A program made the translations under genes and the position numbers. The notes beneath the pieces were generated by a model. That model worked only from the letters and a program-made list of their open reading frames with translations. It was not told the origin of the DNA and searched no databases. 64,000 nucleotides of DNA from contig CANQTM010000003.1 in the NCBI GenBank assembly GCA_947626825.1, forward strand, positions 40,692 through 104,691, read 5' to 3'. Shown one piece after another: positions 11,238 to 59,400 of this stretch; positions within the stretch are counted from its first letter, which is position 1, and each line of letters starts with the position of its first letter. Source of the DNA: an uncultured Bacilli bacterium (GTDB taxonomy: Bacteria > Bacillota_I > Bacilli_A > RFN20 > CAG-631).

Positions 11238-12026
11238 TTATTTTTCCATTTCTATCATTTTTAATAAATGTTTAACAGCACCATCTTCATCATTAGTAAG
11301 CATAGTTATCTCATCAGCACATATTTTGGCAGCAAATTCAGCATTTTTCATAGCTATACCAATATTGGCATAAAATAATAATTCAGCATCGTTTTCACCA
11401 TCGCCAAAAAAAATCAAATCTTTTGCTGATTTATTATATAGTTTTAAAAGAACATCTACACCTTCCTTTTTAGAAAAATTTAAATTGTAAAACTCACCAA
11501 CTACATTCCAATATCTATAATGATAATCATTGTTACTTGTATTAATCAATTGGGCAATTCTTTCTTGATATTTATGATCTTTAGCCATAATAACCATTGT
11601 ATTAGGAGCTGATGGCAATGTTTTTTTAAAATCGCCAATTATATCAACATTGGGCCATCCTTTGCCAGTCAATGCATATGATTTATAATCAATTTCTACT
11701 AAAACATCTAAAACCATAGACATTATTTCTTGATTTGCTAATAAATCATTTAATATTTGCATAGGTATTGTAATATTACGATATTTAATGTTCTTTATAG
11801 GATCATAAACTAAAGCACCATTACATAATACACATATTTCTTTTATATGACATCTTCGATAAATTTCAATACTTGAAACAATGCTTCGACCTGTTACTAA
11901 AGTTATTTTATAACCATCATTTACTAATTTTGTTATAACATCATATGAATAATCTGATGGAAATGCATTACTTCTTGCTAAAGTGCCATCTATATCAAAG
12001 GCAATTAATTTATCTTTTAAAGCCAT
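11238..12026 (-). CDS. Cof-type HAD-IIB family hydrolase
   Basis: 262 aa with FDIDGTL at the N-terminus and GDGENDAELL near the C-terminus. Its stop overlaps the trpS start by 1 nt. Confidence 0.75.
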   Translation of the reverse strand: MALKDKLIAFDIDGTLARSNAFPSDYSYDVITKLVNDGYKITLVTGRSIVSSIEIYRRCHIKEICVLCNGALVYDPIKNIKYRNITIPMQILNDLLANQEIMSMVLDVLVEIDYKSYALTGKGWPNVDIIGDFKKTLPSAPNTMVIMAKDHKYQERIAQLINTSNNDYHYRYWNVVGEFYNLNFSKKEGVDVLLKLYNKSAKDLIFFGDGENDAELLFYANIGIAMKNAEFAAKICADEITMLTNDEDGAVKHLLKMIEMEK

Positions 12027-13018
12027 TATCTTAATCCTACTTTTCTATAAACTTTATTCAATTTTTTTCGAGCTTCATAAATAGCTTTATATGATCCCTC
12101 TTGAAGAATATTTTCAATTATACCACTTTTTTGTATGTCATTTACTTTTGATTGAAGTAAACTTAATTCATTAACTACAACATCGGCTACTTTCTTTTTA
12201 AAGACACCATAATTATCATTTTGACATTCATTTACAACATTTTCTATTGATTTATTTGTTAAAGCAGACATTATAGTTATTAAATTTGAAATTCCAGGTT
12301 TATTAACTGGATCATATATTATTTCATTACCACTATCTGTTACAGCAGACATTATTTTTTTACGAATAATTGCCAAATCTTCTAATAAATAAATTGTTCC
12401 TTTATCTGATTCTGATTTAGACATTTTCTTTAAAGGATTAGATAATGAATTTATTTTAGAACCAATTTTTGGAGTTAAAGGTTCAGGAATTTTAAATGTA
12501 TCTGAATATCTTGAATTAAAACGTATTGCTAAATCTCTAGTTAATTCAACATGTTGTTTTTGATCAATTCCAACTGGAACATAATCAGCATCATAAAGTA
12601 AAATATCTGCAGCCATTAATGTGGGATAAATAAATATTCCTGTAGGAATAGCCTCATTACTTGCTATTTTACTAACTTTATCCTTATATTGAGTCATTCT
12701 AGATAATTCACCTATATATGAATTAAATGTCATTATAAAGCCAAGTTCAGCATGCATTGGGACATCGCTTTGTCTAAACAATGTGACCTTTTTAGGATCT
12801 AAGCCACACGCTAAATAAACTGCTATTAAATTTTTAACATTATTTCGTAATTCTTTGGCTTCAATTGGCAATGTTAAGGCGTGCAAATCAGCAATAAAAA
12901 CATACATTTCATATTCATCTTGATATTTTATAAATTGTTTAATTGCACCAATATAATTACCTAATGTTAATTGCCCTGTTGGCTTAATGCCACTTACTAA
13001 TCTTTTAATTTCTGACAT
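12026..13018 (-). CDS. trpS: Tryptophan--tRNA ligase
   Basis: 330 aa. The class I HIGH-like region (SGIKPTGQLTLGNYIGA) and the KMSKS motif (KKMSKSE) are present, and the size is typical of TrpRS. Confidence 0.9.
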   Translation of the reverse strand: MSEIKRLVSGIKPTGQLTLGNYIGAIKQFIKYQDEYEMYVFIADLHALTLPIEAKELRNNVKNLIAVYLACGLDPKKVTLFRQSDVPMHAELGFIMTFNSYIGELSRMTQYKDKVSKIASNEAIPTGIFIYPTLMAADILLYDADYVPVGIDQKQHVELTRDLAIRFNSRYSDTFKIPEPLTPKIGSKINSLSNPLKKMSKSESDKGTIYLLEDLAIIRKKIMSAVTDSGNEIIYDPVNKPGISNLITIMSALTNKSIENVVNECQNDNYGVFKKKVADVVVNELSLLQSKVNDIQKSGIIENILQEGSYKAIYEARKKLNKVYRKVGLR

Positions 13019-13029
13019 AATAAAGTCCC

Positions 13030-13265
13030 CCTTTAAAAAAAATAAATCCTTAGAAAAAATCTAAGGACGCAAATTTTACGTGGTACCACCTTAGTTTATA
13101 GTTTCCTATGCACTTTATCTCTATAATGGGAGAACCCAGCGCCACTACTTTGTTCGTTTTGCCCTCAATGACCCATATTATCTACTTTTCTTATTTGCTT
13201 CCACCAAGTGCAAATTCTCTATAAAAGAAATTAGTAGTTTTTCTTCATCTCATCGGTTTATTACA
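13030..13265 (-). promoter_or_regulatory. T-box riboswitch leader upstream of trpS
   Basis: The minus-strand leader contains the conserved T-box sequence ACTAAGGTGGTACCACG (plus-strand 13079..13092 reads cgtggtaccacctt). It is followed by a terminator hairpin (tccttag...ctaagga) and a U-run immediately upstream of the trpS RBS. TGG triplets that could be specifier codons are present in the stem I region. Confidence 0.75.
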
Positions 13266-25984: not shown

Positions 25985-26001
25985 GAGGGAAAAATTAAAA
26001 T

Positions 26002-26253
26002 ATGGAAAAAAAATATGACAATTTAAAACTACTTAAAAAAATACAATTTTGGAAAAATATTACTTACATTATTAGTGCACTTTTTATAATGAGTACTATT
26101 TCATCACTATTAATTGTAATTTTGTCTGGCATTGATAAGATTGTTTTACTATTAGTTCTTTTAACTATATCTTTAGTAATGTGTTTAATAAATATAATAA
26201 TTAATTTGTACATTGATTCATTAATTAAGAATAAAGATAAGACTAATAACTAA
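26002..26253 (+). CDS. Small hypothetical membrane protein (two predicted TM helices)
   Basis: 83 aa, two hydrophobic stretches, good RBS. It lies downstream of the candidate switch promoter. Confidence 0.45.
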   Translation: MEKKYDNLKLLKKIQFWKNITYIISALFIMSTISSLLIVILSGIDKIVLLLVLLTISLVMCLINIIINLYIDSLIKNKDKTNN

Positions 26254-26430
26254 AAAATCCCACACATAAATAATAACATAAAGTCAAGCATTTTTTTCAT
26301 CTCTACATGAAAATAAATTTATATGACAAAGTCATATGTTTTTTCAAGTCTTTAAATAGTCTCTAAATAGTTTTTAATTAGTTGCATTTTTGTGTTTAAT
26401 TAGTCTCAAAAAATAAAAAAGGTGATAAAA

Positions 26431-27174
26431 TCACTCACCTATAATCTTAGTAATATAGCCAATTGGTAGCACTGTTATATTATCATTTACTGTTACAGGA
26501 TAACTTGGATGATAATGTCCAGCATACCAATGTTTAAAATTATTAGCATTATATATTTTTTGTAAAAAATCTTGAAGAGGACAAATCTGATCTTTAAATC
26601 TACCAGGTATAAAAGCAATTAATTTGTTAAAAATAGATAATGGAACATCATGTGTAATAACATAATCAACATGATGTGTGCAATAATATTGATAAGCGCT
26701 TTGGAAATCTTCTGTTTTAATTTCTTGTGGCCACCAAAACTTTTTATTATATTCAGCTTCCAATTTTAATCTTTTATCTTTATCAATAGATAAGCCACCA
26801 TTAAATGTAAAAAATTTTATACCATCTATATCAAAGATCTGACCATTTTTGGCATAGTAAACATCAACATCTGGTTCTTTATAGCATTTACCATTAAAAA
26901 TAATTTCTTCAGGAAAAGATTCAATGATATCATAATTTTCATGATTACCTAAAACAGCAATAATAATAAATGGTAAATTATTAAGATGTTTCATTCTTTG
27001 ACCTTTGCTAGTTTCGTTTTCATATGAATTAACAAATCCTGCATCACCAGCAACAAATAAAATATCTTTTTTTTCTAAAGATGTTTTTGATTTTGACTTT
27101 AATTCTTCAAATTTAATATCAAGAAGATCTAAGTCACCATGAATATCACCAATTACATATATATTGCGCTCCAT
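26431..27174 (-). CDS. Metallophosphoesterase (calcineurin-like phosphoesterase)
   Basis: NIYVIGDIHGD and GNHE motifs are present. The start is taken at the ATG for MERNIYV (27174), preceded by GGGGGAAAA. The track ORF begins 7 codons earlier. Confidence 0.7.
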   Translation of the reverse strand: MERNIYVIGDIHGDLDLLDIKFEELKSKSKTSLEKKDILFVAGDAGFVNSYENETSKGQRMKHLNNLPFIIIAVLGNHENYDIIESFPEEIIFNGKCYKEPDVDVYYAKNGQIFDIDGIKFFTFNGGLSIDKDKRLKLEAEYNKKFWWPQEIKTEDFQSAYQYYCTHHVDYVITHDVPLSIFNKLIAFIPGRFKDQICPLQDFLQKIYNANNFKHWYAGHYHPSYPVTVNDNITVLPIGYITKIIGE

Positions 27175-27379
27175 AGGATTTTCCCCCAAGACCATTTCAT
27201 ATTACAATACAATTTTCTTATATGCAACAAATAAAAAAATATAATTTAAGTTTTTTTATGTTTTATTGATAAGATTAAATTGAAATTTTTAATATTATTT
27301 TATTTGAATTAACAAAATTTATTTCAAATATTAAAAATTAAAATTTATTGTATAAATTTTACAAATTTTTTTAAAAAAA

Positions 27380-27452
27380 TTAGCACTCAAGTGTTGACAT
27401 TGCTAAAATGTGATGTATAATATAATTAGCAGTCAGGAAATATGAGTGCTAA
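27380..27452 (+). promoter_or_regulatory. Doubled, degenerate CIRCE (HrcA operator) elements overlapping the hsp20 promoter
   Basis: TTAGCACTC-N9-CATTGCTAA (27380-27406) and TTAGCAGTC-N9-GAGTGCTAA (27426-27452). The consensus is TTAGCACTC-N9-GAGTGCTAA. TTGACA (27394-27399) and TATAAT (27416-27421) sit in between. Confidence 0.6.
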
Positions 27453-27481
27453 AAAATATAATAATGAAAGGAAATATTATT

Positions 27482-27901
27482 ATGAACAACTATAACAAAA
27501 GAAACCAAATTGATTTATTTGATGATGATGATCCATTTTTCACACCATTCGTTAATTTTTTCTCAAAGGAAAGTAGCAAACTTTTAAAAACCGATATTAA
27601 AGAGACTGATAAAGAATACACTCTTTTAATGGATGTTCCAGGTTTGACAAAAAAAGACATTAAAATTTCTTTAGATCAAAAATATCTAACAGTTACTGCA
27701 ACAAGTGATCAAGAATCACAAGAAGGAACAAAATATATTCGTAAAGAAAGATTCTATGGTACAAGTACACGTTCTTTCTATGTAGGAGATATTGAACAAA
27801 AAGATATTAAAGCATCTTTTGAAAATGGTCTTTTAATTATTGTAATTCCTAAGAAGAATTATCAAAAAGCAGAAGAGAAAAAATATATCGATATCAATTA
27901 A
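27482..27901 (+). CDS. Hsp20/alpha-crystallin family small heat shock protein
   Basis: The alpha-crystallin domain (DIKETDKEYTLLMDVPGLTKKDIKISL...GLLIIVIPK) is present. The start is taken at ATG 27482 after AAAGGA. The track ORF starts at an upstream GTG. Confidence 0.85.
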   Translation: MNNYNKRNQIDLFDDDDPFFTPFVNFFSKESSKLLKTDIKETDKEYTLLMDVPGLTKKDIKISLDQKYLTVTATSDQESQEGTKYIRKERFYGTSTRSFYVGDIEQKDIKASFENGLLIIVIPKKNYQKAEEKKYIDIN

Positions 27902-27974
27902 TTCGATATAAATTAATTGCATAAAAGGTTGGCTTCATATATAATTTTGCCAACCTTTTTTATAAATTTGTTTA

Positions 27975-28469
27975 TTATTGTACTTTTAATCTTTCTTTTA
28001 ATTTTGTTTCAATTTCATCTTTAACAACAGATGGAACATAATTTGATATATCACTATTAAATAAAACAAGTTCTTTTATAGAAGATGATGATAAAAATAA
28101 ATTGTTAGCTGAAGGAAACAACAAAATTATTTCAATTGATTTATCTATTGTATGGTTAAATTGAAACAATTGCATTTCAGCATCAAAATCATTATGATTT
28201 CTTAATCCCCTAATAATGGCAGTAGCATGAACTTTTTGAGCATATTTCATTACTAAGTCATCAGAAAATACTACATTAACATTTTTTAAATGAGCACAAG
28301 ATTTTTTTACAATGTTAATTCTTTCTTCAATTGAAAAAATACATTTTTTATTGGGATTTACAGAAACCAAAACATAAAGTGTATCACATAATTTACTAGC
28401 TCTAGTTATAATATCAAGATGACCATTTGATAAAGGATCAAATGTTCCAGGATAGATAGCAACTTTCAT
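27975..28469 (-). CDS. coaD: Phosphopantetheine adenylyltransferase
   Basis: 164 aa. VAIYPGTFDPLSNGHLDII is the classic CoaD nucleotidyltransferase motif. Confidence 0.9.
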   Translation of the reverse strand: MKVAIYPGTFDPLSNGHLDIITRASKLCDTLYVLVSVNPNKKCIFSIEERINIVKKSCAHLKNVNVVFSDDLVMKYAQKVHATAIIRGLRNHNDFDAEMQLFQFNHTIDKSIEIILLFPSANNLFLSSSSIKELVLFNSDISNYVPSVVKDEIETKLKERLKVQ

Positions 28470-28474
28470 GATAG

Positions 28475-28978
28475 TTAGCCTCCTTGTTTTAAATATTTTT
28501 TAACTTCTCTTCTACTTTTAAATATATAAATTTTTTTCTCAGGGTGATTATTAATAAATTGATAAATGCGTTGACGACTTGTTTTATAAAAATCTTTAAA
28601 GACCCATTTTAAATAATCTTTAGATAATTCTTCATCACACAAGTCACTACGAGAATCTCTATGTTTTCCTTTGTATTTAAAATATCTTTTAATAACTGAA
28701 AACAAACAAGTAAAGCGATTTAAATCTAGAAAATAAATTGTGTCGCATTGTTCAAAACGAGCAAGAGCATTATTTAAAAAATTTCCATCAATAATCCAAT
28801 TTTCTTTTTCTAAAAAGCTCATAATATAATCCATATCATCATATTCTGGTTGTTTCCAATTGTGTTTATAAATGAGGGCATCAAGATGAAGATAATCAAC
28901 TTTTATTTTATTGGCTAAACTTACAGTAAATGTTGATTTACCACTACCAGAATTGCCAAGTACTATAATTTTAGGCAT
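28475..28978 (-). CDS. P-loop NTPase (topology modulation protein FlaR-like / adenylate-kinase-like)
   Basis: 167 aa, Walker A LGNSGSGKST. Confidence 0.5.
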   Translation of the reverse strand: MPKIIVLGNSGSGKSTFTVSLANKIKVDYLHLDALIYKHNWKQPEYDDMDYIMSFLEKENWIIDGNFLNNALARFEQCDTIYFLDLNRFTCLFSVIKRYFKYKGKHRDSRSDLCDEELSKDYLKWVFKDFYKTSRQRIYQFINNHPEKKIYIFKSRREVKKYLKQGG

Positions 28979-29107
28979 CTTTAGACCTCACTTTCTTTTT
29001 TATTATACAACACTAAAAGAAATTAAAGAATATAAATTTTAATTAGATTGAATTATATTTTTCCCTGAATTATAATATCTTTAGTGTTACAAGGAGACTT
29101 TACTATT

Positions 29108-33888: not shown

Positions 33889-35526
33889 ATGTTTATGGAT
33901 AAATACGAACAATTAGCAAAACTTATATGTCCTGATGTTAATATAACTATTGCAGATTTAGAAACAAAATTCCCACCTAGAAATTTAAATGAAAATGCAA
34001 AAGTAACCCGTTTTGCACCAAGTCCTACTGGTTTTTTACATACAGGTTCTTTATTTGCATCTTTTGTGGCTTCGAAATTAGCTTATGATAGTAATGGAGT
34101 TTTTTACCTTAGAATAGAAGATACTGATACTAAAAGAGAAGTTAAAGATTCTATAAAAACTTTAGTTGAACAATTATCTTTATTTAATATTAAAATTAAT
34201 GAAGGATATGGAATTGGTGGCAATTATGGACCATATATTCAATCAGAAAGAAGTTTTATTTATAATACAGTAATTTATGATATGATTTGCAAAGGACTTG
34301 CTTATCCTTGTTTTTGTAGTCAAGATGAATTAGATAAAGTAAGAGAAATTCAAACTGCAAATAAAGAAAGACCTGGATATTATGGCAAATATGCAAAATG
34401 TCGTAATTTAACTGTTGATGAAGCAATTTCAAAAATCAAAAATGGTGAACCTTATGTTGTAAGATTTAAAAGCACTGGTAATTTTGAAAATCATATTAAT
34501 TTTCATGATCAAATTCGTGGTGATTTAAATCTTTCAGAAAATGATTTAGATATTGTAATTCGTAAATCTGATGGCTTACCAACTTACCATTTTGCTCATG
34601 TATGTGATGATCATTTTATGCATACAACAGATGTTATCAGAGGCGAAGAATGGTTGCCATCAGTACCAATTCATGTGCAATTATTTAAAGCATTAAATTT
34701 TCCTTTGCCAAATTATGCACATGTTCCTGTTATAATGAAAAATGACAATGGAAATCGTCGTAAACTTTCAAAACGTTTAGATCCAGAAGCATCTGTTTTT
34801 TATTTTGTTGAGAAAGGTTATCCAACAGAAGCTTTACTTATTTATCTATGTACAATTGCTAATTCAAATTATGAAGAATTTCGTTTAACTACTAACAATG
34901 ATAATATTGATGATTTCAAATTATCTTATGATAAATTTTCTTTAGATGGTGCCTTATTTGATTTAGAAAAAATAAATAATATTTCTAAAGATATAATTTT
35001 TAAAACACCAATTGATACATTAGTTGATAAAGTTATAAATTGGGCTAAAATGTACGATAATAAATTATTTGATTTAATTAACATTGATACTGAAATGTTT
35101 AAAAAGATTATGAATTTTGGCAAAGAAGATTTACAACCAAGAAAAGATTATTATAAATATTCTGATATTTATGAACACATAAATTATATGTATAAAGAAG
35201 AATATGATAATTTAATTTGTGAAGAAACAAATTATGACAAAAATTTAATTAGTAAAGTTTGTCAACTATTTAAAAATGATTTACTTTCTAAAGAGCCAAT
35301 CAATAAAGACACATGGTTCAATCATCAAAAAGATATTGCAAGAAATATTGGATTTGCTTATAATAAAAAAGACATGAGGGATAATAATTTTGCTTATATG
35401 TTTAGCGATTATATGGCTATTATTCGTCTTTCATTAACTAAAAGAAAAAATGCTTTTGATTTAGTTGATATTATTACAACTATTGGCATTGATGAAGTAA
35501 TTCGTCGTTTAGATTTATTTATTTAG
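33889..35526 (+). CDS. gltX: Glutamate--tRNA ligase
   Basis: 545 aa. It has the class I signature RFAPSPTGFLHTGSL and the KMSKS-type motif RKLSKR. Confidence 0.9.
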   Translation: MFMDKYEQLAKLICPDVNITIADLETKFPPRNLNENAKVTRFAPSPTGFLHTGSLFASFVASKLAYDSNGVFYLRIEDTDTKREVKDSIKTLVEQLSLFNIKINEGYGIGGNYGPYIQSERSFIYNTVIYDMICKGLAYPCFCSQDELDKVREIQTANKERPGYYGKYAKCRNLTVDEAISKIKNGEPYVVRFKSTGNFENHINFHDQIRGDLNLSENDLDIVIRKSDGLPTYHFAHVCDDHFMHTTDVIRGEEWLPSVPIHVQLFKALNFPLPNYAHVPVIMKNDNGNRRKLSKRLDPEASVFYFVEKGYPTEALLIYLCTIANSNYEEFRLTTNNDNIDDFKLSYDKFSLDGALFDLEKINNISKDIIFKTPIDTLVDKVINWAKMYDNKLFDLINIDTEMFKKIMNFGKEDLQPRKDYYKYSDIYEHINYMYKEEYDNLICEETNYDKNLISKVCQLFKNDLLSKEPINKDTWFNHQKDIARNIGFAYNKKDMRDNNFAYMFSDYMAIIRLSLTKRKNAFDLVDIITTIGIDEVIRRLDLFI

Positions 35527-35548
35527 CAAGATAATATCTTGCTTTATT
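35526..35548 (+). terminator. Rho-independent terminator after gltX
   Basis: Hairpin gcaagata-at-atcttgc followed by tttatt. Confidence 0.55.
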
Positions 35549-35625
35549 GGCCTATTGGTGAAGCGGCTTAACACATCGCCCTCTCAAGGCGACATTCACG
35601 AATTCGAATTTCGTATAGGTCACCA
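35549..35625 (+). tRNA. tRNA with anticodon CTC (reads GAG; tRNA-Glu-like), encoded CCA
   Basis: 77 nt. The acceptor stem is GGCCTAT/ATAGGTC with discriminator A and CCA. The T arm is ACGAA-TTCGAAT-TTCGT, D-loop AAGCGGCTTAA. The anticodon stem is TCGCC/GGCGA with loop CTCTCAA, which resembles tRNA-Glu. Confidence 0.7.
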
Positions 35626-35637
35626 ATTAAAAAAATG

Positions 35638-35669
35638 CTCAATATTATTTAGTAATATTGAGTTTTTTT
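35638..35669 (+). terminator. Rho-independent terminator after the tRNA
   Basis: Hairpin ctcaatatta-tttag-taatattgag followed by ttttttt. Confidence 0.6.
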
Positions 35670-35815
35670 GTAAACCCAATCAATAAATTGTATTTTTTCT
35701 AATTTATAAATTTCAATTCAACCATTAGTTTAATACTTTTTTAAAATATCAACGAATAATTGCTATGTTTTTTATTTGTTCTATGGTATAAATTAATTGA
35801 AAGAAGGAACATATT

Positions 35816-36523
35816 ATGAAAGAAATTTTAGCAAATAACATAAAAAAACTTAGAAAAGAAACTCATTTAAGTCAAGAACAATTAGCTAACATTTGCCAAG
35901 TAAGCGTTCAAGCCGTTAGCAAATGGGAATGTTGTTTATCATATCCTGATATTGAATTATTACCTATTATAGCTAAAGCCTTTAATGTTACAATTGATAG
36001 TTTATTGCTAGATAAGGTAGAAGAACATGAAACATTTTCTTGGGATGATGATGATAAAATTCGTGTTGTTCAATATCATGGTCATAAATTATTAGCAGTT
36101 GATGAAATTACTAATAAAATTAATTTAAAGATGCCATCTTTTGATAATCGCAAAGAAAAAGACAAAGTAGCTTTTAATGTTGAAATTACTGGTGGTGCCC
36201 AAATAGAAGGTGCAATTGGTGGCAACGTTAGTGTTAATGCTGGAGATGTGTCTTGTCAAAAGGTTGGTGGAAATCTTATTGTTAATGCTGGTGCTGTATG
36301 TTGTCAAAAGGTCGGTGGAAATCTTACTGTTAATGCTGGAGATATGTCTTGTCAAAAAATTGGTGGCAATGTCAATGTCACTCATGGTGATATTGAGTGT
36401 AAAGAAAATTTAAATGTTGGTGGCTCTCTTGAATGTGATAATATTAATGTAAGTGGTGATTTATATTGCAAATCAAATATCAATTGCGATAATATTACAT
36501 GTAATTCTACTAATAAAACATAA
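35816..36523 (+). CDS. XRE-family HTH regulator fused to a Cys-containing tandem-repeat (beta-solenoid-like) C-terminal domain
   Basis: 235 aa with an N-terminal HTH (LSQEQLANICQVSVQAVSKWE). The C-terminal half consists of 16-aa repeats VNAGDVSCQKVGGNLI / VNAGAVCCQKVGGNLT / VNAGDMSCQKIGGNVN and then degenerate copies. Confidence 0.6.
   Translation: MKEILANNIKKLRKETHLSQEQLANICQVSVQAVSKWECCLSYPDIELLPIIAKAFNVTIDSLLLDKVEEHETFSWDDDDKIRVVQYHGHKLLAVDEITNKINLKMPSFDNRKEKDKVAFNVEITGGAQIEGAIGGNVSVNAGDVSCQKVGGNLIVNAGAVCCQKVGGNLTVNAGDMSCQKIGGNVNVTHGDIECKENLNVGGSLECDNINVSGDLYCKSNINCDNITCNSTNKT
36209..36376 (+). repeat. Intragenic 48-nt tandem repeat (about 3.5 copies) encoding the 16-aa repeat units
   Basis: gttaatgctgg recurs at 36233, 36281 and 36329. 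The copies are about 85-90% identical. Confidence 0.8.
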
Positions 36524-36648
36524 AAAATTGATTTTAGAGGCTTATTTATTAAGCCTTTTTTATTGCTTATTTTGATAAAACTTGACATTTATAAACCTAA
36601 TATATAGAATATTAATGATGTTACAAATGTAATATCAATGGAGGAATT

Positions 36649-37200
36649 ATGGGAAAAGTTAGTGAACTTAAATGTTCTAATAAAACTGCTAATCAATTAG
36701 CTAAACAATATTTAAAAAAAGCCTTAATTTCCTTAATGAGTCAAAAAGACTTTAATCATATTAGTATTACAGAACTTGTTAAAGAAGCAAATATTTCTAG
36801 AGAAGCATACTACAATAACTATAGTAGTAAAAATGAAATTATTAAAGATATTGTTTTAGAAATTAATTTTACTATTTTAGATTCTGTAGGTCGTCCTTTT
36901 ACTAAAGATGTTTCTTTAGATTGGTATTTAGATTTATTTACTAATGTTGAAAAATATCAAGATACTTTATTAACTTTAGCAAATGCTGGTTTGCAAAATG
37001 ATTATATTCAAATAGTTAATGACTACATTTTAAGCAAAAAAGACATTAAAAATGATGAAATTGCTTGTAAAAGAATTCTTTGGAATGGTGGAATTCAAAA
37101 TCTTATTTGGCAATGGATCAAAAAGAAAACAAAATTAACTAAAGAAAAAATAGCTATGTTGTGCTATGATTTCTTTCATAAAAATCAAGTTTATATTTAA
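36649..37200 (+). CDS. TetR/AcrR family transcriptional regulator
   Basis: 183 aa with an N-terminal TetR HTH region (FNHISITELVKEANISREAYYNNY). Confidence 0.7.
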   Translation: MGKVSELKCSNKTANQLAKQYLKKALISLMSQKDFNHISITELVKEANISREAYYNNYSSKNEIIKDIVLEINFTILDSVGRPFTKDVSLDWYLDLFTNVEKYQDTLLTLANAGLQNDYIQIVNDYILSKKDIKNDEIACKRILWNGGIQNLIWQWIKKKTKLTKEKIAMLCYDFFHKNQVYI

Positions 37201-37213
37201 AGGTGGGGAAAAA

Positions 37214-38089
37214 ATGGGAAAAATAAAAATTATTACTGATTCAAATTCAGGAATCAAACAAAAAGATGTAAATGATTTAGATATATTTGTTATACCAATG
37301 CCTTTTTATATTAATGGGCAAGAATATTTTGAAGATATTTCTTTAACAACAGAAGAATTTTTTAAATTTTTAGAACAAGATGCTAATATTTCAACATCAC
37401 AACCATCAACAATGTATTTACAAGATTTATTTACTAATACATTAAAAGACTATGATGAGATAGTTTATATTCCTATGTCAAGTGGTTTATCTAGCACTTG
37501 CGAAAGTGCTAAAGTTGTGGCTAAATCATTTAATAATAAAGTTCATGTTATAGATAATCTTAGAATATCTGTCACACAAAAATCTAGTGTTTTTGAAGCA
37601 AATAGACTTAAAAATTTAGGAAAAAGTGCTTCAGAAATTGAAACATATTTAATGGAAACTAAAAATATTGCCTCAATATATATTTATCTTGATACTTTAA
37701 AATATCTTAAAAAAGGTGGCAGAATTACACCAACAGCCGCTTTACTTGCAAATCTTTTAAAAATTAAACCAATTTTATATACAAGAGGTGGAAAATTTGA
37801 AAAATTTGCTACATGTAGAACAATTTATAAAGCTAAAGATATAATGATTGAACAAATAAAAAAGGAACTAGAAGGAGAATTTAAAGAATATTATCAACAA
37901 GGTTTAATGACTTTGCATATTGCCCATACTCAAAATTATGAAGAAGCACAAAATTTTAAAAAAGAAATTAATGAAAAATTACCAAATTTAAAAGTTGGTT
38001 ATATTGATCCATTATCATTAAGTGTTTCTTGTCATATTGGTGCAGGGGCTTTAGCTTTAGCAATGGCTATTGATCATACAAATAAATAA
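37214..38089 (+). CDS. fakB: DegV family fatty-acid-binding protein (FakB-type)
   Basis: Begins MGKIKIITDSNSG. The start is at ATG 37214 after AGGTGGGG. The DegV/EDD fold pattern is present. Confidence 0.8.
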   Translation: MGKIKIITDSNSGIKQKDVNDLDIFVIPMPFYINGQEYFEDISLTTEEFFKFLEQDANISTSQPSTMYLQDLFTNTLKDYDEIVYIPMSSGLSSTCESAKVVAKSFNNKVHVIDNLRISVTQKSSVFEANRLKNLGKSASEIETYLMETKNIASIYIYLDTLKYLKKGGRITPTAALLANLLKIKPILYTRGGKFEKFATCRTIYKAKDIMIEQIKKELEGEFKEYYQQGLMTLHIAHTQNYEEAQNFKKEINEKLPNLKVGYIDPLSLSVSCHIGAGALALAMAIDHTNK

Positions 38090-38674
38090 TTATTTATTTA
38101 ATTCATAGTATTGTTTTAATATTGTAACAGATAAATTTGCCAATATTTTGGCAGTTTTATTTTCATCAAAAGTGTTGTCTAAAATCCATTTTTCAATTAA
38201 ACCAATTGTACCATTGGCAGCATATTCGAAAATTAATTCAAAGGCAGCATTTTTAATATCAAGCCATTCATACAAAAACTTTTTAATAACTAAATATAAA
38301 TTGTTAATGTATCCCCTTAAAGAATCATCATTTAAAAGCACTTGATAAAAAGCAATATTAGGCTTAATTAAATGCAAAATATTTCTAAAACCCCAATGAA
38401 TGCTAATTTCATTATAATTTTTTGTATTTAAAGTTTGAAAAAAGGTTAAAGAATTTTGAATTTGCTCATTTAAATCAAACATCATTTTTTTAATAAGATC
38501 ATCTTTAGTATCATAATGTAAATAAAATGTATTTCGATTTATTTTTGCCTTTAAAGCAATTTCGCTAACGCTTACATTTTGATAACCTTTTTCCTTGATT
38601 AATTGAATAAAGGCCCCTTGAATGGCCTTTTTTGTTTTAATAACTCTAAGATCCATTGCATTATTTCTTTTCAT
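38090..38674 (-). CDS. TetR/AcrR family transcriptional regulator
   Basis: 194 aa with a TetR N-terminal HTH (YQNVSVSEIALKAKINRNTFYLHY). Confidence 0.7.
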   Translation of the reverse strand: MKRNNAMDLRVIKTKKAIQGAFIQLIKEKGYQNVSVSEIALKAKINRNTFYLHYDTKDDLIKKMMFDLNEQIQNSLTFFQTLNTKNYNEISIHWGFRNILHLIKPNIAFYQVLLNDDSLRGYINNLYLVIKKFLYEWLDIKNAAFELIFEYAANGTIGLIEKWILDNTFDENKTAKILANLSVTILKQYYELNK

Positions 38675-38794
38675 ATTTGCACCTCATTTAATATGTAATT
38701 GATAAATAAGCGACATATGTCGCTTTATTGTTGTTTGCACAAAATATTTTATGTGTTAGAATATTTTTTGTCAAGAAAGATAGAGGAAAAATTT

Positions 38795-39700
38795 ATGGAA
38801 AAAAGAGATTTTGTAATCGTTGTTGATTCTTGTTCTGATTTAAATAAAGAATTAAGAACAAAAAATGGTATTGAATATGTAAAAATGTCATTTGTTAAAA
38901 AATTTGCTGACCATGATGAAGAAGTTCCTGCATCACTAGATTGGGATTTATTTACTAATAAAGAACTAAATGATTGGCAAAGAAATGGAATGCAATTAAA
39001 AACTATTCAAGTAACAGCTGAAGAATTTACAAATAAATTTACTGAAATATTAAATCAAAATAAAGATGTTTTATATATTGCATGTTCAAGTGCTTTATCT
39101 GGTTCATATGACTATTCTTTAATAGTTAAAGATGAATTATTAACAAAATATCCTAATGCAAAAATTATTTGTGTTGATTCATTATGTTCATGTCTTGGTC
39201 AAGGATCAATGGCTTTAGATGTTGCTAAAATGCAAAAAGAAGGAGCAACTATTGAACAATGTCGTGATTATCTTGAAGAAAACAAATTATGTTATAACCA
39301 ATTAGCAACAGTTGAAACATTAGATTATTTAAAGAAAGCAGGTCGAATAAAAGCATCAACAGCATTTTTTGGAAATATTTTTGGTGTTAAACCAATTTTT
39401 ATTTCTGATGCTATTGGCCAAAATTTTGCTGTTAAAAAAGTTAAAGGAAGAAAAAATTCTTTTATTGAAATGGTTAATATGATGAAAGAATTAATTGTAG
39501 AACCAGAAAAACAAACTGTTTATGTTTGTCATTCAGATTGTTTAGAAGACGCCCAATATGTTAAAGAATTAATAGAAAAAGAAATTAAGCCACTTAATGT
39601 AAGTATTGAATATTTAGGTCCAATTATTGGAGTTAGTACAGGACCTGGTACTATTGGAATTTATTTTAAAGGACAAAAAGTTACTGTAACTGGAAAATAA
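38795..39700 (+). CDS. fakB: DegV family fatty-acid-binding protein (FakB-type)
   Basis: Begins MEKRDFVIVVDSCSDL. The start is at ATG 38795 after AGAGGAAAAA. The track ORF starts 32 codons upstream. Confidence 0.8.
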   Translation: MEKRDFVIVVDSCSDLNKELRTKNGIEYVKMSFVKKFADHDEEVPASLDWDLFTNKELNDWQRNGMQLKTIQVTAEEFTNKFTEILNQNKDVLYIACSSALSGSYDYSLIVKDELLTKYPNAKIICVDSLCSCLGQGSMALDVAKMQKEGATIEQCRDYLEENKLCYNQLATVETLDYLKKAGRIKASTAFFGNIFGVKPIFISDAIGQNFAVKKVKGRKNSFIEMVNMMKELIVEPEKQTVYVCHSDCLEDAQYVKELIEKEIKPLNVSIEYLGPIIGVSTGPGTIGIYFKGQKVTVTGK

Positions 39701-39701
39701 T

Positions 39702-41348
39702 ATGAATACCAAGTTATTAGATGGAAATACTTTTAAAACATTATTAATAAATGGCTGCCAAAGTTTAATTAATGATATTGATAGAATCAATGCTTTAAAT
39801 GTTTTTCCTGTTCCAGATGGCGATACAGGAACAAATATGAGACTCACTTTAGAAGGTGGAGTTAAAAGTATAATCAATGAAAATGAAAATGATTTATCAA
39901 AATTAAGTAAAACATTAGCTAGAGCCATGACATTTTCAGCACGAGGCAATTCTGGTGTCATTTTATCACAATTTTTTAAAGGACTTTCAAATGGTTTAGA
40001 GACTTTACCTAAAGCCACCGCAAATGATTTAGTTAAGGCCTTTGACGAAGGCGTAAAACAATCATATAAAGTTGTTAAAAGACCAACTGAAGGAACTATC
40101 CTTACAGTTATGAAAGATTCAACTAATTATTGTAAAGAAACAATCGATGAAAATAGTACCATTGAAGATTTTTTTGCTAGTTTTCTTAAAGAAGCCCACG
40201 CTTCTTTAGAAAGGACTCCTGACTTATTACCTGTTTTAAAAGAAGCTGGTGTTATAGATTCAGGTGGTGCTGGATTTAATAGAATTATTGAAGGAATGAT
40301 TATGGCCCTTGATGGAAATATTTTAGTAAATCAAGAAAAATTTGAAGAAGAAAAAGCAAAAAAAAGTGTTGGGCATTTCAATGCTGATAGTGTCTTGGAA
40401 TATGGTTATTGCACTGAATTTATTTTACAATTACAAAATAGTAAAGTTGATATCAAAACATTTGAATTAAAACAAATAACAGATTATTTAGAAAAAATCG
40501 GTAATTCAATAGTTGCTTTTAAAGATGATGATATAGTTAAAGTTCATGTACATACATTCACACCAGGTTTAGTAATTAATTTTTGCCAAAAATTTGGTGA
40601 ATATATAACATTTAAAATGGAAAATATGTCTGTACAACATTCAGAATTAGGAATTGCCAATAATGAAAAGCCAAAAGAACATAAAAAATATGTAGTTATT
40701 GCTGTAGCACCAAATGATAATTTAGGTCAAGCATTCAAAGATTTAGGTGCTGATGAAATTGTTTTTGGTGGGCAAACAATGAATCCATCAAGTGAAGATT
40801 TTGTCGAAGCATTTGAAAGATTTGATGCTGAAAACATTATTGTATTTCCAAATAATAGTAATATTATTTTAGCAGCTCAACAAGCCGCTGATAATTATGA
40901 AAAGGCAAATGTTGTTTTAATTCCTACAACATCTTTAGTACAATGTTATTGTTCTTTAACAATGCTTGATTTAGGACTTGATGATTTAGATATGATTGTT
41001 AACGATTTAACATCTACTGCAAAAAATGTTATTTCTCTAGCAATTACTAAAGCAACAAGAAACAGCAATATTCAACATGTCGATATTCATAAAGATGATT
41101 ATATAGCCTTAATTGATAAAAATATTGTTAAAGATAACAATAATAAAATTAATGTTGTAATCGAGGCATTAAAAACAATTAATGATATTTTAGATAAAGA
41201 TGTAATTACTATAATTTATGGAAAAGATGTTTCTGATGACGAAAAACAACAACTAGAAACATTAATAAAACAAAATTTCCCTAATTTAGAAATTGGAACT
41301 ATTAATGGACAACAAGATGTTTATAATTTCTTAATTGCAATTGAATAA
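39702..41348 (+). CDS. fakA: Fatty acid kinase FakA (DAK2 domain fusion protein YloV family)
   Basis: 548 aa with the N-terminal Dak2/DhaL-like nucleotide-binding motif PVPDGDTGTNM. It lies immediately after a DegV gene with a 1-nt gap. Confidence 0.8.
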   Translation: MNTKLLDGNTFKTLLINGCQSLINDIDRINALNVFPVPDGDTGTNMRLTLEGGVKSIINENENDLSKLSKTLARAMTFSARGNSGVILSQFFKGLSNGLETLPKATANDLVKAFDEGVKQSYKVVKRPTEGTILTVMKDSTNYCKETIDENSTIEDFFASFLKEAHASLERTPDLLPVLKEAGVIDSGGAGFNRIIEGMIMALDGNILVNQEKFEEEKAKKSVGHFNADSVLEYGYCTEFILQLQNSKVDIKTFELKQITDYLEKIGNSIVAFKDDDIVKVHVHTFTPGLVINFCQKFGEYITFKMENMSVQHSELGIANNEKPKEHKKYVVIAVAPNDNLGQAFKDLGADEIVFGGQTMNPSSEDFVEAFERFDAENIIVFPNNSNIILAAQQAADNYEKANVVLIPTTSLVQCYCSLTMLDLGLDDLDMIVNDLTSTAKNVISLAITKATRNSNIQHVDIHKDDYIALIDKNIVKDNNNKINVVIEALKTINDILDKDVITIIYGKDVSDDEKQQLETLIKQNFPNLEIGTINGQQDVYNFLIAIE

Positions 41349-56400: not shown

Positions 56401-59400
56401 ATGGGAAATATTGATAACAAATTCGAAATTTGGACAAAAAAACTTTATGATATATCTAAAAAAAATTATATGATTAATTTTAGAGGGCAAAAAAATCGAT
56501 GTTTAACAATAACTAAGCCTGATATTTTTGAATTATATGATTCTTTAGTATTTAAAGATAATTCTATGTCTTTTAAAAGAGCAATTACTGCTGATACAAA
56601 TTTCAATATTTTTGCTATTAATACTTTAATTAATTGTTTAGGTAATAGTACCATTTTTGAAGAAGGAGATATTTCTGTTGCACCGAAAGTCAACAAAACC
56701 CCATATTTTATTTTAAGAAACATTAAGAAAACTGCTAATTTTTTTAAACAAGAACAAGGCATTGATGTCATGTATATGACTTTTTTATATGTAAGATGGC
56801 ATCCAATTGGCTCAACAGATGAATATTTAACACCTTTAGTTAATGTTCCTGTTTCTTTAGAACAAGATAATATCTATTCATTATTTATATTAAAAAAACA
56901 AGGTGAACCTGAAATAAACCCAATATTTTTATATATGTTAGAGCAACAACAAATGACAATACCTTCTATAAATGACAAACCATTAAAAGAATATTTGGTA
57001 GAATTAGAAAAAATATTTGCAGATTTGGATTTTGAAATAATTCAACAGGCTAATCTATGTGTACTATTTTTCCAAAAAATGGTAATGTTTAAAGATTTAG
57101 TAAATAATAAAGAAAGAATTATAAATCATCCAATCATTAAAATGTTTTGTAATGATAATGAAGAAAATACGATTTTTGATTTAGATAATTTTCCACAAAT
57201 AAAAGAAAGCCAAAAAATTGTTGTAATTGATGCAGATTCAAGTCAAAGCAAGGCTTTAGATTTAGCAACTCAAGGGCAATCATTTGTATTGCAAGGCCCA
57301 CCTGGAACTGGCAAAAGTCAAACAATTACTAATATAATAGCAAGTCAAATATATCAAGGCAAAAAAATTCTATTTGTCTCGCAAAAGACTGCCGCTTTAG
57401 AAGTTGTTTTTAATATGCTTAAGAAAATTGGACTTAGTGATTTAGCCTTAACTTTACATAACAATAACAAATTAAATAAAAATGAAATTATAAATGAAAT
57501 TTATGCTCCTTTTTCATTTAAAAAGTTTAATGTTAAAGAAGAAAAAATAAATTATTTAATGAAAATCGATCAAATTTTAAATGATTTAGAACAATATAAT
57601 GAACTTTTAAATACCAAAGTTTATTCATTAAATGATACATTATATGAATTAATTAATAAATATTTTGATCTTATAGAAATATCAAAAAGTAATTTTAAAA
57701 TTAATTTTGATTTAACTTCATTAGATTATAAAACACTTCTAGAAAATGTAAATTCAATTAATCTTTTTGAAAACGAATGGAAATCAATTACAATAAATAA
57801 TGATGATTGTTATGATTATTTTGCTATTGACGATATATCATTACAAACCAAAGAAAAATTAGATAACGATTTATTATTAATTTACAATAAAATTGAACCA
57901 TTAGTAAACACATACTTGAATTTAAAAAAATATATTAGTAATTTATCTTTAACTTTTGATAATTCTTTAAATATTTTAGACGATTTAAATAAATTAAATA
58001 ATATTGATTTTAATGATATTAAAATAAACAATATTGAACTTTTAAATGAATATATCGATGATATTAATTTTTATTTAAAAAGTGATGAAGACTTAAAAAA
58101 GACATACCAAGAAATAAATAATATTTTTTATGATAATATTTTTAATATTGATATGAAAGAATTAGCAAATATTATTGAAAATAATCTTAATATTATTAAA
58201 ACTAATATTAAAGATTTTGCTAATTGTTCACATTACGAAATAATGCAACAATTAAATAATTATGCTAATAGTCTTAATAATTTTATCAATAATAAGGAAA
58301 CATTTGATAAAACAACTAATTATTTAACAACTTTATTACATGTTTCTTTGGATACTTTATTATCTTATGACTTATACCATATAAATGAAGAATTAAAAAA
58401 TAACACATATTCTTTAAGTTATTTTTCTGTAGCTTATAGTAATTATGATGTTGTTATAAATAATTTAAATAGATATAAAGAATTAAAAGAAAACCAAAAA
58501 CATTTAAAAAAATTAATTACTAATTTATCATATGAAGCTATTTTAACTTTAAATGAAAATCAAGTAGATAATTATTTAATTATTTTAGATGAAAAAACTA
58601 ATTGGTTTAATTTTAGTAAAAAAGAAGCTAAAAAAGATGTTATTAATAAAATATCAACTTATTTATACGATAATCAAACAAATATAGAAACTGTTATAAA
58701 CATTTTACATCTTGTTAAAAATTATCAAGAAATTACTAATCACTTAAAGCAATTAGGTCAAGCAATAAAGCCATTATTAAATGACACGATTAATCTTGAT
58801 AATAGTGAAATTGACTGCCAAAGTTATATCAATGAATTAGACAAATTGCATCATATTATTATATTATTACCAAATGTTAAAGAAAATATTTTAAAAAGTA
58901 TTTTAAGTTTTGATAATGCTTTAAATTTTAAAAATAATCTTTACAATCTTTTAGAATGTTTACCAATGGTTATAAATAATTATGATAATGATTTACAAAC
59001 TTTAATAGAAAACGAAAAAATTGTAAATGAAACATTAAAATTTGTTAACACATTAAAATTATATTGTAAAGATTTTACACTATTAAAAGATATTGAAAAC
59101 AAATATATTTATTTAAAAAATTATGCTAAAATCAAACAAGAAAATCAAGAAAAGAAAACTATTTTAGATAATATTTTTACATATGATATTTTAAAATCAA
59201 AAAAGCAATTATTTTATATAAATCAAATTAATTGTTTTGCCAAAACATATAATTTAAATCAAAACGAATTATTATTAAATTTAATAAATCACTCAAAAGA
59301 TATTTTCTTTCTTATTTTGCAATTTAAAGAAAGATATAGCCAATCTTTACCATCATATAATCATTTTAAAGAAATGTTTACCAAAGAAAAAAATCTTGAA

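Follow-up and report, generated by a model that had tools for sequence, protein, structure and literature searches.

A putative XRE-type regulator with a predicted one-cysteine-per-turn beta-helical tail, from a large helix-turn-helix family without a name of its own

The gene described here, located in a window of 64,000 nucleotides (the whole stretch of DNA that was analysed), appears to encode an XRE-family DNA-binding regulator whose tail is predicted to form a beta-helix with one cysteine stacked per turn. Proteins with such a tail make up a large family, which has no name of its own and is annotated only as "helix-turn-helix protein". We propose that the protein is an orphan, self-regulated XRE factor in which the solenoid would act as a rigid module for self-association or docking, an explanation on which, taken as a whole, our judgement is evenly balanced. 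The gene and its parts are:

35816..36523, forward strand: gene for the 235-aa HTH–solenoid protein (from the ORF list; complete, ATG start, stop codon included)
35840..36001, forward strand: XRE HTH, residues 9-62 (PF01381 HTH_3, Foldseek and PDB sequence matches)
36038..36169, forward strand: linker or 'cap' module, residues 75-118 (conservation; hairpin in the AF2 model)
36170..36520, forward strand: predicted beta-solenoid domain, residues 119-235 (AF2 pLDDT 85-94, 16-aa register, family profile)
36216..36370, forward strand: 48-nt DNA tandem repeat, 3.2 copies, made up of units R1-R3 and part of R4 (TRF)

The initial annotation had read the gene as an XRE HTH fused to 16-aa repeats, and the ORF is exactly as it was noted there. 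The HTH is confirmed by a match of residues 9-62 to PF01381 HTH_3 (E 4.4e-10; 39.9 bits, against a Pfam cut-off of 23). In the AF2 model this part is a five-helix HTH (helices 2-15, 20-27, 31-38, 46-56 and 60-64; pLDDT 87-97), which Foldseek superimposes on C.BclI, DdrO, SinR and P22 C2 with target TM scores of 0.76-0.87 and rmsd of 0.9-1.5 A, and PDB sequence matches to the HTH include PezA and DdrO. An HTH of this subtype, with 57-70% identity across residues 1-64, is followed by a TPR tail in some clostridial proteins. The solenoid tail of the window protein has no match in Pfam or NCBIfam, searches of PDB sequences and of PADLOC with the window protein returned HTH matches only, as did Foldseek with the full-length model, and PHROGs gave only phrog_3163, of unknown function. 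On viral contigs, all 57 matches were limited to residues 1-77, that is, to the HTH, and none contained the solenoid, for which a phage origin was therefore rejected. A literature search for XRE–bactofilin fusions found no publication on such an architecture.

At the DNA level, TRF finds a single array in the ORF, at 36216-36370 (period 48, 82% matches, no indels, score 212), in agreement with the 48-nt repeat that had been proposed to underlie the 16-aa units. The solenoid consists of a degenerate coil without cysteine (R0, residues 119-134, AFNVEITGGAQIEGAI), four coils in a 16-aa register (R1, GGNVSVNAGDVSCQKV; R2, GGNLIVNAGAVCCQKV; R3, GGNLTVNAGDMSCQKI; R4, GGNVNVTHGDIECKEN) and then tapering, shorter coils. 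Its cysteines are at positions 147, 163, 179 and 195 in the ladder coils, followed by 207, 218, 224 and 229. Units R1-R3 are 81-85% identical to one another (39-41 of 48 positions), so that the 85-90% given earlier for the central copies was slightly too high, and R4 is 58-67% identical to them. The similarity of R1-R3 is far above chance, as 48-mers taken in frame from the gene's N-terminal half share 32% identity on average and 56% at most.

The same annotation had taken the repeat to be young or variable by slippage. If so, the gene could be a contingency locus, in which slippage or recombination alters the number of 48-nt copies and thereby generates variants of the regulator. The similarity of the three tandem units would fit such a locus, as would the range of ladder lengths among distant members (1-14, median 5) and the additional 17-aa unit of the relative P0004. 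However, comparison with a species whose version of the protein shows 82% identity gives 88-92% DNA identity between orthologous units and only 77-85% between paralogous ones. The number of repeats is the same in 15 of 15 full-length sequences from four species-level clusters (90% identity), and an identical window protein is encoded by three independent metagenome contigs. In addition, dN/dS relative to the L007 ortholog is 0.34 for the whole gene and 0.13 in the central units, the strongest purifying selection in the gene. Because orthologous units are closer than paralogous ones and the copy number is constant, the reading as a young, slippage-prone repeat fails, and a contingency locus, being largely refuted, retains only a minimal probability. 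A scan of JGI metagenome contigs for exact 21-mers gave four matches, all of them by chance, and no homolog.

A profile built from the cap and solenoid recovers 1468 clusters (at 50% identity) with E<=1e-3, 666 with E<=1e-10 and 145 with E<=1e-30, and matches the window protein itself at residues 80-237 with an E-value of 8e-48. The tail is obligately fused to an XRE HTH across the family: HTH_3 is present in 108 of the 115 top matches, at least four of the remainder being fragments, and a query with the solenoid alone returned almost exclusively HTH-fused proteins. The hosts are gut and rumen anaerobes represented by MAGs; that of the window is an uncultured Bacilli-like bacterium, and the first named relative of its GluRS is from a 'MAG Bacilli bacterium' (51% identity). 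Among 198 family proteins, a spacing of 15 residues accounts for 45% of all Cys–Cys spacings and is the dominant one in 160, the clade of the window protein having 16. The one-cysteine-per-repeat ladder that had been pointed out in this gene is thus real and characterises the family throughout: its cysteine is invariant or at least 90% conserved in the alignments. The cap, too, is characteristic, with a family motif PDDxxLRVVQxxGxxLL that takes the form SWDDDDKIRVVQYHGHKLL in the window protein. Residues D79, R82, Q86 and G89 are at least 90% conserved in at least one family alignment, as are D79 and V85 in alignment A1, and AF2 places a beta-hairpin across residues 83-97. In long relatives, one polypeptide contains three solenoid modules in a row, and the cap motif precedes every solenoid in P0071 and P0076, both of them multi-module relatives.

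The proposal that the tail is a beta-solenoid is backed by AF2, which models the C-terminal part as such with a pLDDT of 87 and a pTM of 0.81. Residues 122-234 form a regular strand–turn–strand structure with 16 residues per coil and a 5-2-6-3 pattern of strands and turns. Both models, full-length and tail-only, are of monomers. Foldseek with the tail-only model found no significant match in the PDB (E>=0.75), every match being a beta-helix, and in BFVD the best one was an unnamed Yersinia phage protein (E 5e-3, TM 0.41). A logo of 1026 repeat units reads G-[DN]-[VI]-G-G-[DN]-[VA]-x-A-G-G-x-[VI]-x-C, with three Gly corners. As the ladder cysteine lies two residues past a conserved V/I and is followed by a Gly corner, the register suggests that the ladder probably faces the solenoid core, which makes a structural role likelier. 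The occurrence of Cys at the conserved Ala position in 7% of the units of relatives fits this idea of Cys as a small core residue.

Alternatively, the ladder could be a redox or metal sensor, the stacked thiols either binding a soft metal or Fe-S or being oxidised by O2 or ROS, with consequences for solenoid stability and, through it, for DNA binding. In such a ladder, successive thiols would be separated by about 4.8 A in the direction of the helix axis. Chemical activity of this kind would go well with the conservation and dominant spacing of the ladder cysteines, with a Cys content of about 5% of tail residues and with the further cysteines (C207, C218, C224 and C229) grouped at the tapering C-terminal end, and a sensor would be useful to strict gut anaerobes. 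The near-invariance of Cys at the ladder position, where Ala, Ser or Val might have served, also exceeds what core packing by itself needs and may reflect a chemical role of the thiol. On the other hand, the register that puts the cysteines on the conserved V/I face implies the core, the tail has neither a CxxC nor another known metal motif, Pfam, NCBIfam and a PDB profile search revealed no resemblance to metal-binding families, and members such as P0050-P0053 have Thr or Ser in place of Cys in the first coils. We therefore consider a sensor unlikely. If the Cys ladder were nevertheless chemically active, it would constitute a new sensor architecture in strict gut and rumen anaerobes.

Very short coils that each contribute at least one Cys to a row running along the helix are also found in the beta-helical antifreeze proteins of Tenebrio (12-residue coils) and spruce budworm (15-residue coils), which are secreted, eukaryotic and disulfide-bonded and have Thr-rich ice-binding faces. 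The window protein, in contrast, is cytoplasmic and its hosts are anaerobes, and it has no sequence match and no significant fold match to these proteins, other antifreeze proteins being reached by Foldseek only at E>2.

With respect to the origin of the solenoid, sequence comparisons suggest that it is distantly related to the cytoplasmic beta-helical scaffolds bactofilin and Toastrack/DUF4097. Bactofilin/DUF583 and DUF4097 had been named at the outset as families to search, and this was the right neighbourhood, since 30 of 115 relatives match PF04519 (Bactofilin) at E<=1e-3 and one matches DUF4097 (E 1.6e-12), but the window protein itself matches neither: PF04519 gives no match to the full protein or to the tail alone even at E<=10. 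Among 22 members, 13 match PF04519 at E<1, and two members other than those 30 exceed its cut-off of 27.9 (P0030 with 33.0 bits and P0049 with 30.7 bits), whereas P0004, which of the members scanned is the nearest to the window protein, scores no more than 15.1 bits. The solenoid-only search reached a single non-HTH bactofilin, at E 8e-4, and repeat composition could inflate such scores, as it could those of the relatives against PF04519. Comparisons with known structures gave no significant match: the tail profile matches the Thermus bactofilin 6ria with E 0.79, and Foldseek aligns the tail model with BacA (2n3d) at E 8 (TM 0.21-0.28) and, at E 4-5, with 3ljy and 3pet, two putative adhesin chains that we take to be DUF4097-like. 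The window protein also matches the solenoid+SHOCT-like proteins P0066-P0070 (E 3e-6 to 4e-4; 31% pairwise identity with P0066), a similarity of the repeats that is its one connection to Toastrack-associated modules. Since 30 of 115 relatives match Bactofilin and the window protein does not, its tail is best described as bactofilin/Toastrack-like, not as a proven member of either family.

This kinship raises the question of whether the solenoids polymerise as bactofilins do, joining end to end into filaments that would act as a DNA-coating or DNA-bridging factor or as an inactive storage polymer. The members that match the Pfam Bactofilin model ('polymer-forming cytoskeletal'), two of them above the gathering score, and the chaining of three modules in the long relatives would speak for it. 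The window protein, however, lacks the PF04519 match, the structural similarities just given are poor, and neither a canonical bactofilin partner nor any second solenoid or bactofilin gene was found within the 64-kb window. Moreover, a conserved cap for each module and the tapering C-terminal coils resemble closed ends, and these same features could block end-to-end contacts, which would count against self-association in general. Polymers of this type seem to us quite improbable.

Compared with the bactofilins (PF04519/DUF583; Caulobacter BacA, Helicobacter CcmA, B. subtilis BacE/BacF), which are likewise cytoplasmic beta-helices rich in Gly, Asp and Val and with Gly corners, the family differs in several respects. 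Its turns have 15-16 residues instead of the approximately 18 of bactofilins, as in the BacA structures, each of these turns carries a single conserved Cys, the coils are preceded by a conserved cap motif, and the solenoid is nearly always fused to an XRE HTH, while bactofilins are small, stand-alone, polymerising proteins. To our knowledge, the documented link between an XRE repressor and a beta-helical scaffold exists only in trans, in BacR with BacE/F. In B. subtilis, BacR is kept from binding DNA by the bactofilins BacE/F, to which it binds (PMC13649987). BacR (YhbD) and BacE/BacF thus likewise couple a DNA-binding regulator to a beta-helical scaffold, but regulator and scaffold are distinct products of a single operon and the regulator has a DUF4004 HTH, whereas the window protein combines an XRE HTH and a solenoid in a single polypeptide and no partner gene is conserved near the family loci. 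Toastrack proteins (DUF4097/DUF2154/DUF2807; LiaG, YvlB, VraT) also have intracellular beta-helical repeats that are sometimes linked to an HTH; such fusions and associations have been noted, and the domains have been proposed to be docking platforms (bioRxiv 10.1101/2020.09.24.301986). Unlike these, the window protein has no DUF4097 match and no PspC, LiaF, SHOCT or membrane-anchor module. It also lacks a psp/lia neighbourhood, and no psp/lia genes recur near family genes where neighbours were annotated (the window and loci L001-L008).

A further idea is that the acidic beta-helix is an intramolecular mimic of DNA, comparable to pentapeptide-repeat proteins, which would auto-inhibit the HTH or compete for DNA-binding proteins. 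Family tails are indeed acidic (median net charge -18, range -52 to -2; pI 4.3), and the outward repeat positions are mostly D, N, S, T or E. Yet in the window protein the acidity past the HTH is mild (net charge -7; -5 for the solenoid alone), so that strong acidity is not conserved in its clade, no similarity to pentapeptide-repeat families was seen with Pfam or Foldseek, and acidic surfaces are common among cytosolic proteins. DNA mimicry is very unlikely.

Turning to the explanation that we prefer, the orphan, self-regulated factor with a rigid self-association or docking module, the C-terminal two-thirds of the protein would form one folding unit, a cap hairpin followed by a short beta-helix in which each turn is set by corners rich in Gly and by small residues in the core (V/I, V/A, A, V/I, C). 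The cysteines, if indeed oriented towards the core, would mainly be compact core residues. The solenoid, as a rigid module for self-association and/or the docking of a partner, would set the oligomeric state and the spacing of the HTH domains and in this way control DNA binding. Such a division of labour resembles that of other XRE repressors (SinR, phage 434/P22 C2, DdrO, RRNPP), which share the five-helix HTH_3 fold and the logic of a C-terminal domain that governs the oligomeric state or senses a signal. Their C-terminal domains are, however, helical, TPR or peptidase domains, none being a beta-solenoid. More ambitiously, the family could be seen as a novel class of transcription factors of gut anaerobes, in which oxidation of, or metal binding by, the internal thiol ladder of a miniature bactofilin-like beta-helix switches assembly (through polymerisation or unfolding) and with it DNA binding; we regard it as decidedly doubtful.

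The family brings together two fields that are usually separate, XRE repressors and beta-helical cytoplasmic scaffolds. Should the solenoid control assembly of the regulator, this would be a new way of setting the valency of a transcription factor, and should the thiol ladder switch assembly, a cytoskeleton-type scaffold and a redox-sensing regulator would be directly fused in one protein. In any case, the family merits a domain model of its own, combining the cap motif PDDxxLRVVQxxG with the 15/16-residue unit given by the repeat logo above.

Under the preferred explanation, the protein would first target the conserved TCAAC-type sites that precede its own promoter, from which we infer autoregulation. 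The features surrounding the gene are:

35549-35625: tRNA-Glu
35627..35673, forward strand: AT-rich inverted repeat with T-run (21-nt arms, 86% complementary, 5-nt loop)
35713..35758, forward strand: conserved upstream blocks, candidate operator sites (alignment of the window, L007 and L008)
35782..35793, forward strand: probable extended -10 element TATGGTATAAAT (read from the sequence)
35803-35808, forward strand: RBS GAAGGA, 7 nt before the ATG
36536..36558, forward strand: terminator-like hairpin with T-run (terminator scan; 9-bp stem, 5-nt loop, T-rich tail)
36582-36610: the downstream gene's own promoter, TTGACA-17-TAGAAT

The upstream blocks are invariant among the window, L007 and the close relative L008 although the upstream genes differ, and the 125 nt upstream of the gene are 73-75% identical among the three, compared with 67-89% for the CDS. 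They contain a direct repeat, TCAACCATTA (35718-35727) and TCAACGAATA (35749-35758), with starts 31 nt apart. This spacing corresponds to about three helical turns and would suit an array of HTH domains, a point in favour of the polymer explanation. The 10-mer pattern occurs four times in the window against 1.0 expected, a count reached in 2 of 100 shuffles, and the 22-mer box is unique within the window. The TCAAC-type boxes are a putative operator, conserved among three related species only. The block TTCTATGGTATAAATTA is likewise invariant in all three orthologous upstream regions. Because TATGGTATAAAT is absent from the list produced by a simple -35/-10 scan, the promoter assignment is an interpretation of the sequence, in which it is probably an extended -10 element.

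The gene is monocistronic and stands alone, with hairpins on both sides, a downstream gene that has its own promoter and no conserved neighbours. The hairpin at 36536..36558 sits directly past the stop codon, and the inverted repeat that follows the tRNA-Glu gene probably ends the gltX/tRNA transcript and so insulates the gene. An all-against-all comparison of 20 family loci revealed no conserved neighbour gene; DegV adjoins the gene only in the window, L008 and L015. Homologs in L004 and L007 adjoin nrdDG (anaerobic ribonucleotide reductase), which would be in keeping with a sensor, but this adjacency is limited to two of about 20 family loci, while a locus with a partial match has nrdDG at a distance of about 5 kb, and as the adjacency is not general the link was rejected. 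The GC content of the host is about 25%.

The HTH–solenoid gene was located together with its repeat array, for which Tandem Repeats Finder returned one array:

35816-36523, + strand: HTH–solenoid ORF, 235 aa
36216-36370: 48-nt tandem array, 3.2 copies, 82% matches, 0 indels

The tail of this protein is that of a large, unnamed family, which is notable for its size and for a striking Cys ladder. A first search gave ~53 full-length relatives sharing the same layout, i.e. an XRE HTH, the conserved motif PDDxxLRVVQxxGxxLL and Cys-containing repeats. A profile of the cap (the conserved module preceding the solenoid) and solenoid, scored against 1.84 billion representatives, matched 1468 clusters at E<=1e-3, of which 666 remained at <=1e-10 and 145 at <=1e-30. 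In the matched proteins, the aligned part usually begins near residue 75-100. Since HTH_3 is present in 108 of the 115 top profile matches (at least four of the HTH_3-less ones being N-terminal truncations), and since a solenoid-only query from the relative P0049 retrieved almost exclusively HTH-fused proteins, the fusion looks obligate; an XRE DNA-binding domain is here permanently tied to a capped Cys-ladder beta-helix. The cap and solenoid form an autonomous unit, as P0071 (644 aa) and P0076 (700 aa) carry three tandem cap+solenoid modules behind a single XRE HTH. In both, the first module is without most of the ladder Cys. Family hosts are gut and rumen MAGs of Oscillospiraceae, Ruminococcaceae, Christensenellales and other Clostridia, as well as Bacilli MAGs; viral contigs matched the HTH part only and never the solenoid.

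The HTH_3 domain was matched in Pfam at residues 9-62 (39.9 bits; cut-off 23), and the N-terminal part of the model can be superposed on C.BclI, DdrO, SinR, P22 C2 and similar XRE repressors. The tail had zero matches in Pfam, NCBIfam and PDB sequences. In an AlphaFold2 model of the full-length protein, built on a 38-member alignment, the HTH is confident, the linker (beta-hairpin at 83-97) is less so, and residues 122-234 form a regular solenoid. The beta-solenoid proposed in the initial annotation was the correct fold class: residues 75-235 modelled alone reached a pLDDT of 87 and a pTM of 0.81, with a secondary-structure period of strand(5)-turn(2)-strand(6)-turn(3), or 16 residues. Foldseek with this tail model returned beta-helical proteins only, all at E>=0.75 and TM<=0.40, among them tapirin, HpmA, antifreeze proteins, CsgA, BacA (2n3d) and the putative adhesins 3ljy and 3pet, which we take to be DUF4097-like; the best E in BFVD was only 5e-3. 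The predicted fold class is thus clear, with no close solved structure found by Foldseek in PDB and BFVD.

The Cys ladder is regular across the family. Spacing 15 makes up 45% of all Cys–Cys spacings in 198 family proteins and is dominant in 160 of them, spacing 16 dominating in only 8, including the clade studied here. The repeat logo (1026 units) reads G-[DN]-[VI]-G-G-[DN]-[VA]-x-A-G-G-x-[VI]-x-C, with three Gly-rich corners, hydrophobics at positions i and i+2 along two longer sides and one more on a short side. From this pattern, the solenoid is probably a small three-sided helix in which the ladder Cys would share the inner face with the conserved V/I that precedes it by two positions. 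A thiol-based redox or metal switch, a rival explanation, could draw on the regularity of the ladder, and has to be set beside this presumed inner position and beside relatives in which a second Cys replaces the conserved Ala (giving spacings of 6+9), a replacement that would fit Cys as a small core residue. Another rival, an acidic DNA-mimic auto-inhibitor, agrees with the very acidic tails of the family (median net charge -18); the charge C-terminal to the HTH in our protein is only -7.

In the 16-residue register, the tail comprises a degenerate first unit (residues 119-134), four clean units (GGNVSVNAGDVSCQKV, GGNLIVNAGAVCCQKV, GGNLTVNAGDMSCQKI and GGNVNVTHGDIECKEN) and shorter coils, with Cys at 147, 163, 179, 195, 207, 218, 224 and 229. 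DNA identity among the three central units is 81-85%, against an in-frame background within the gene of 32% on average (maximum 56%), which confirms the tandem repeat, although the 85-90% first claimed was a little high; the fourth unit is 58-67% identical to these three. Several ORFs of 47-86 aa run across the repeats in alternative frames and on the opposite strand (36082-36588, both strands), and seem to result from the periodicity of the repeat rather than to be genes.

The proposal that the repeat is young or prone to slippage did not hold. In the L007 locus, whose ortholog P0002 is 82% identical in protein, the units match their positional counterparts at 88-92% DNA identity and non-counterparts at only 77-85%, so the units are older than the species split and show no ongoing homogenisation. 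Copy number, for which a comparison among strains had been suggested, is kept within each cluster in 15 of 15 full-length sequences (four species-level 90% clusters); length differences within clusters reflect alternative start calls or truncation, and the identical protein occurs on three independent contigs. The protein is under purifying selection, with a dN/dS against L007 of 0.34 overall and 0.13 in the three central units. A slippage-driven contingency locus is thereby largely refuted. Copy number does change at deeper divergence (P0004 has one additional unit, of 17 residues), and ladder length ranges from 1 to 14 across the family. One strain variant in the cluster of our protein, P0294, is identical to it except over the first ~27 residues, which are those of the P0002 lineage; this suggests recombination between lineages inside the HTH region.

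Of the HMM searches suggested earlier (bactofilin/DUF583 and DUF4097), none matched the protein itself, whereas relatives did match. PF04519 was matched by 13 of 22 members at E<1 and by 30 of 115 at E<=1e-3, P0030 (33.0 bits) and P0049 (30.7 bits) exceeding the cut-off of 27.9 bits and P0004, the scanned member nearest to our protein, reaching only 15.1 bits; among the 115, a few matched FapA and one Toastrack/DUF4097. The protein also matches solenoid+SHOCT-like proteins (P0066-P0070) at E 3e-6 to 4e-4, with 31% pairwise identity to P0066, a repeat similarity shared with an architecture described for Toastrack proteins (bioRxiv 10.1101/2020.09.24.301986). The tail can thus be placed approximately, as probably bactofilin/Toastrack-like, where no known family had been assigned before, but because its own HMM searches were negative and Foldseek scores low, we refrain from assigning it to either family. 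Genuine bactofilin-type filament formation, a further rival, has the matches of the relatives on its side and the same negative searches against it. The XRE regulator with such a solenoid is an unannotated combination of known kinds, not a categorically new system; our literature searches found no paper on an XRE–bactofilin fusion.

We favor the view that the solenoid is most likely a rigid self-association or partner-docking module, which would set HTH valency and thereby control DNA binding. Such control is the usual logic of XRE regulators that carry a C-terminal domain. The nearest precedent for a regulator coupled to a beta-helical scaffold is BacR, whose DNA binding is blocked by the bactofilins BacE/F (PMC13649987), and the docking role proposed for Toastrack domains (bioRxiv 10.1101/2020.09.24.301986) points the same way.

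The first DNA target would be the gene's own promoter. Around the gene, in a window of ~25% GC, lie:

within 33889-35673: GluRS gene, 545 aa (PF00749 and PF19269)
35549-35625: tRNA-Glu(CTC), directly after the GluRS gene
35627-35673: AT-rich hairpin, after the tRNA
36536-36558: terminator-like hairpin, downstream of the HTH–solenoid gene
36649-41348: fatty-acid kinase cluster, immediately downstream

Since hairpins flank the gene and the next one has its own near-consensus promoter, it is most likely monocistronic. Despite differing upstream genes, the window, L007 and the close relative L008 keep a conserved stretch of about 110 nt upstream of the gene, at a pairwise identity (73-75%) comparable to that of the coding sequence. 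Three blocks are kept with single-base variation only: AATTCAACCATTRGTTTAAT, AATATCAACRAA and TTCTATGGTATAAATTA, the last being a probable extended -10 element. The two TCAAC boxes have a start-to-start distance of 31 nt, and the 22-mer upstream box has no second copy within the window. This region is probably a promoter with a candidate autoregulatory operator.

The gene is an orphan, no neighbor being conserved across 20 family loci. The kinase cluster comprises a TetR-like 183-aa protein (unannotated, no Pfam match), two DegV/FakB paralogs, a divergent TetR and FakA; L008 alone shares this synteny, with the 183-aa protein and first DegV beside the gene. In L007 (4226-7177), P0002 has beside it another HTH_3 protein, 270 aa long, after which come nrdG and nrdD, and in L004 an nrdD/nrdG pair follows the relative P0007, but adjacency in these two loci does not generalise to an nrdDG partnership. 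The 270-aa protein has hydrophobic segments resembling predicted membrane spans. At 33889-35673, the synthetase gene adjoins a cognate tRNA gene; the closest named relative of this GluRS, from a 'MAG Bacilli bacterium', is 51% identical.

Elsewhere in the window, further features were noted:

13060-13262, - strand: T-box leader (RF00230, 98.5 bits), upstream of a tRNA synthetase ORF
12026-13018, - strand: class-I Trp/Tyr-type tRNA synthetase ORF, 3′ of the leader
56401-61809: 1802-aa ORF with DUF4011, AAA_11/AAA_12 helicase and REase_MTES_1575 nuclease domains

At ~26000-29000, cumulative GC skew has its minimum and the predominant gene strand changes from minus to plus. A replication origin or a strand-switch point might lie here; no dnaA-sized ORF was noticed. 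Local GC at the 1802-aa ORF (18-24%) is the lowest in the window, and the gene might belong to a defence system or a mobile element.
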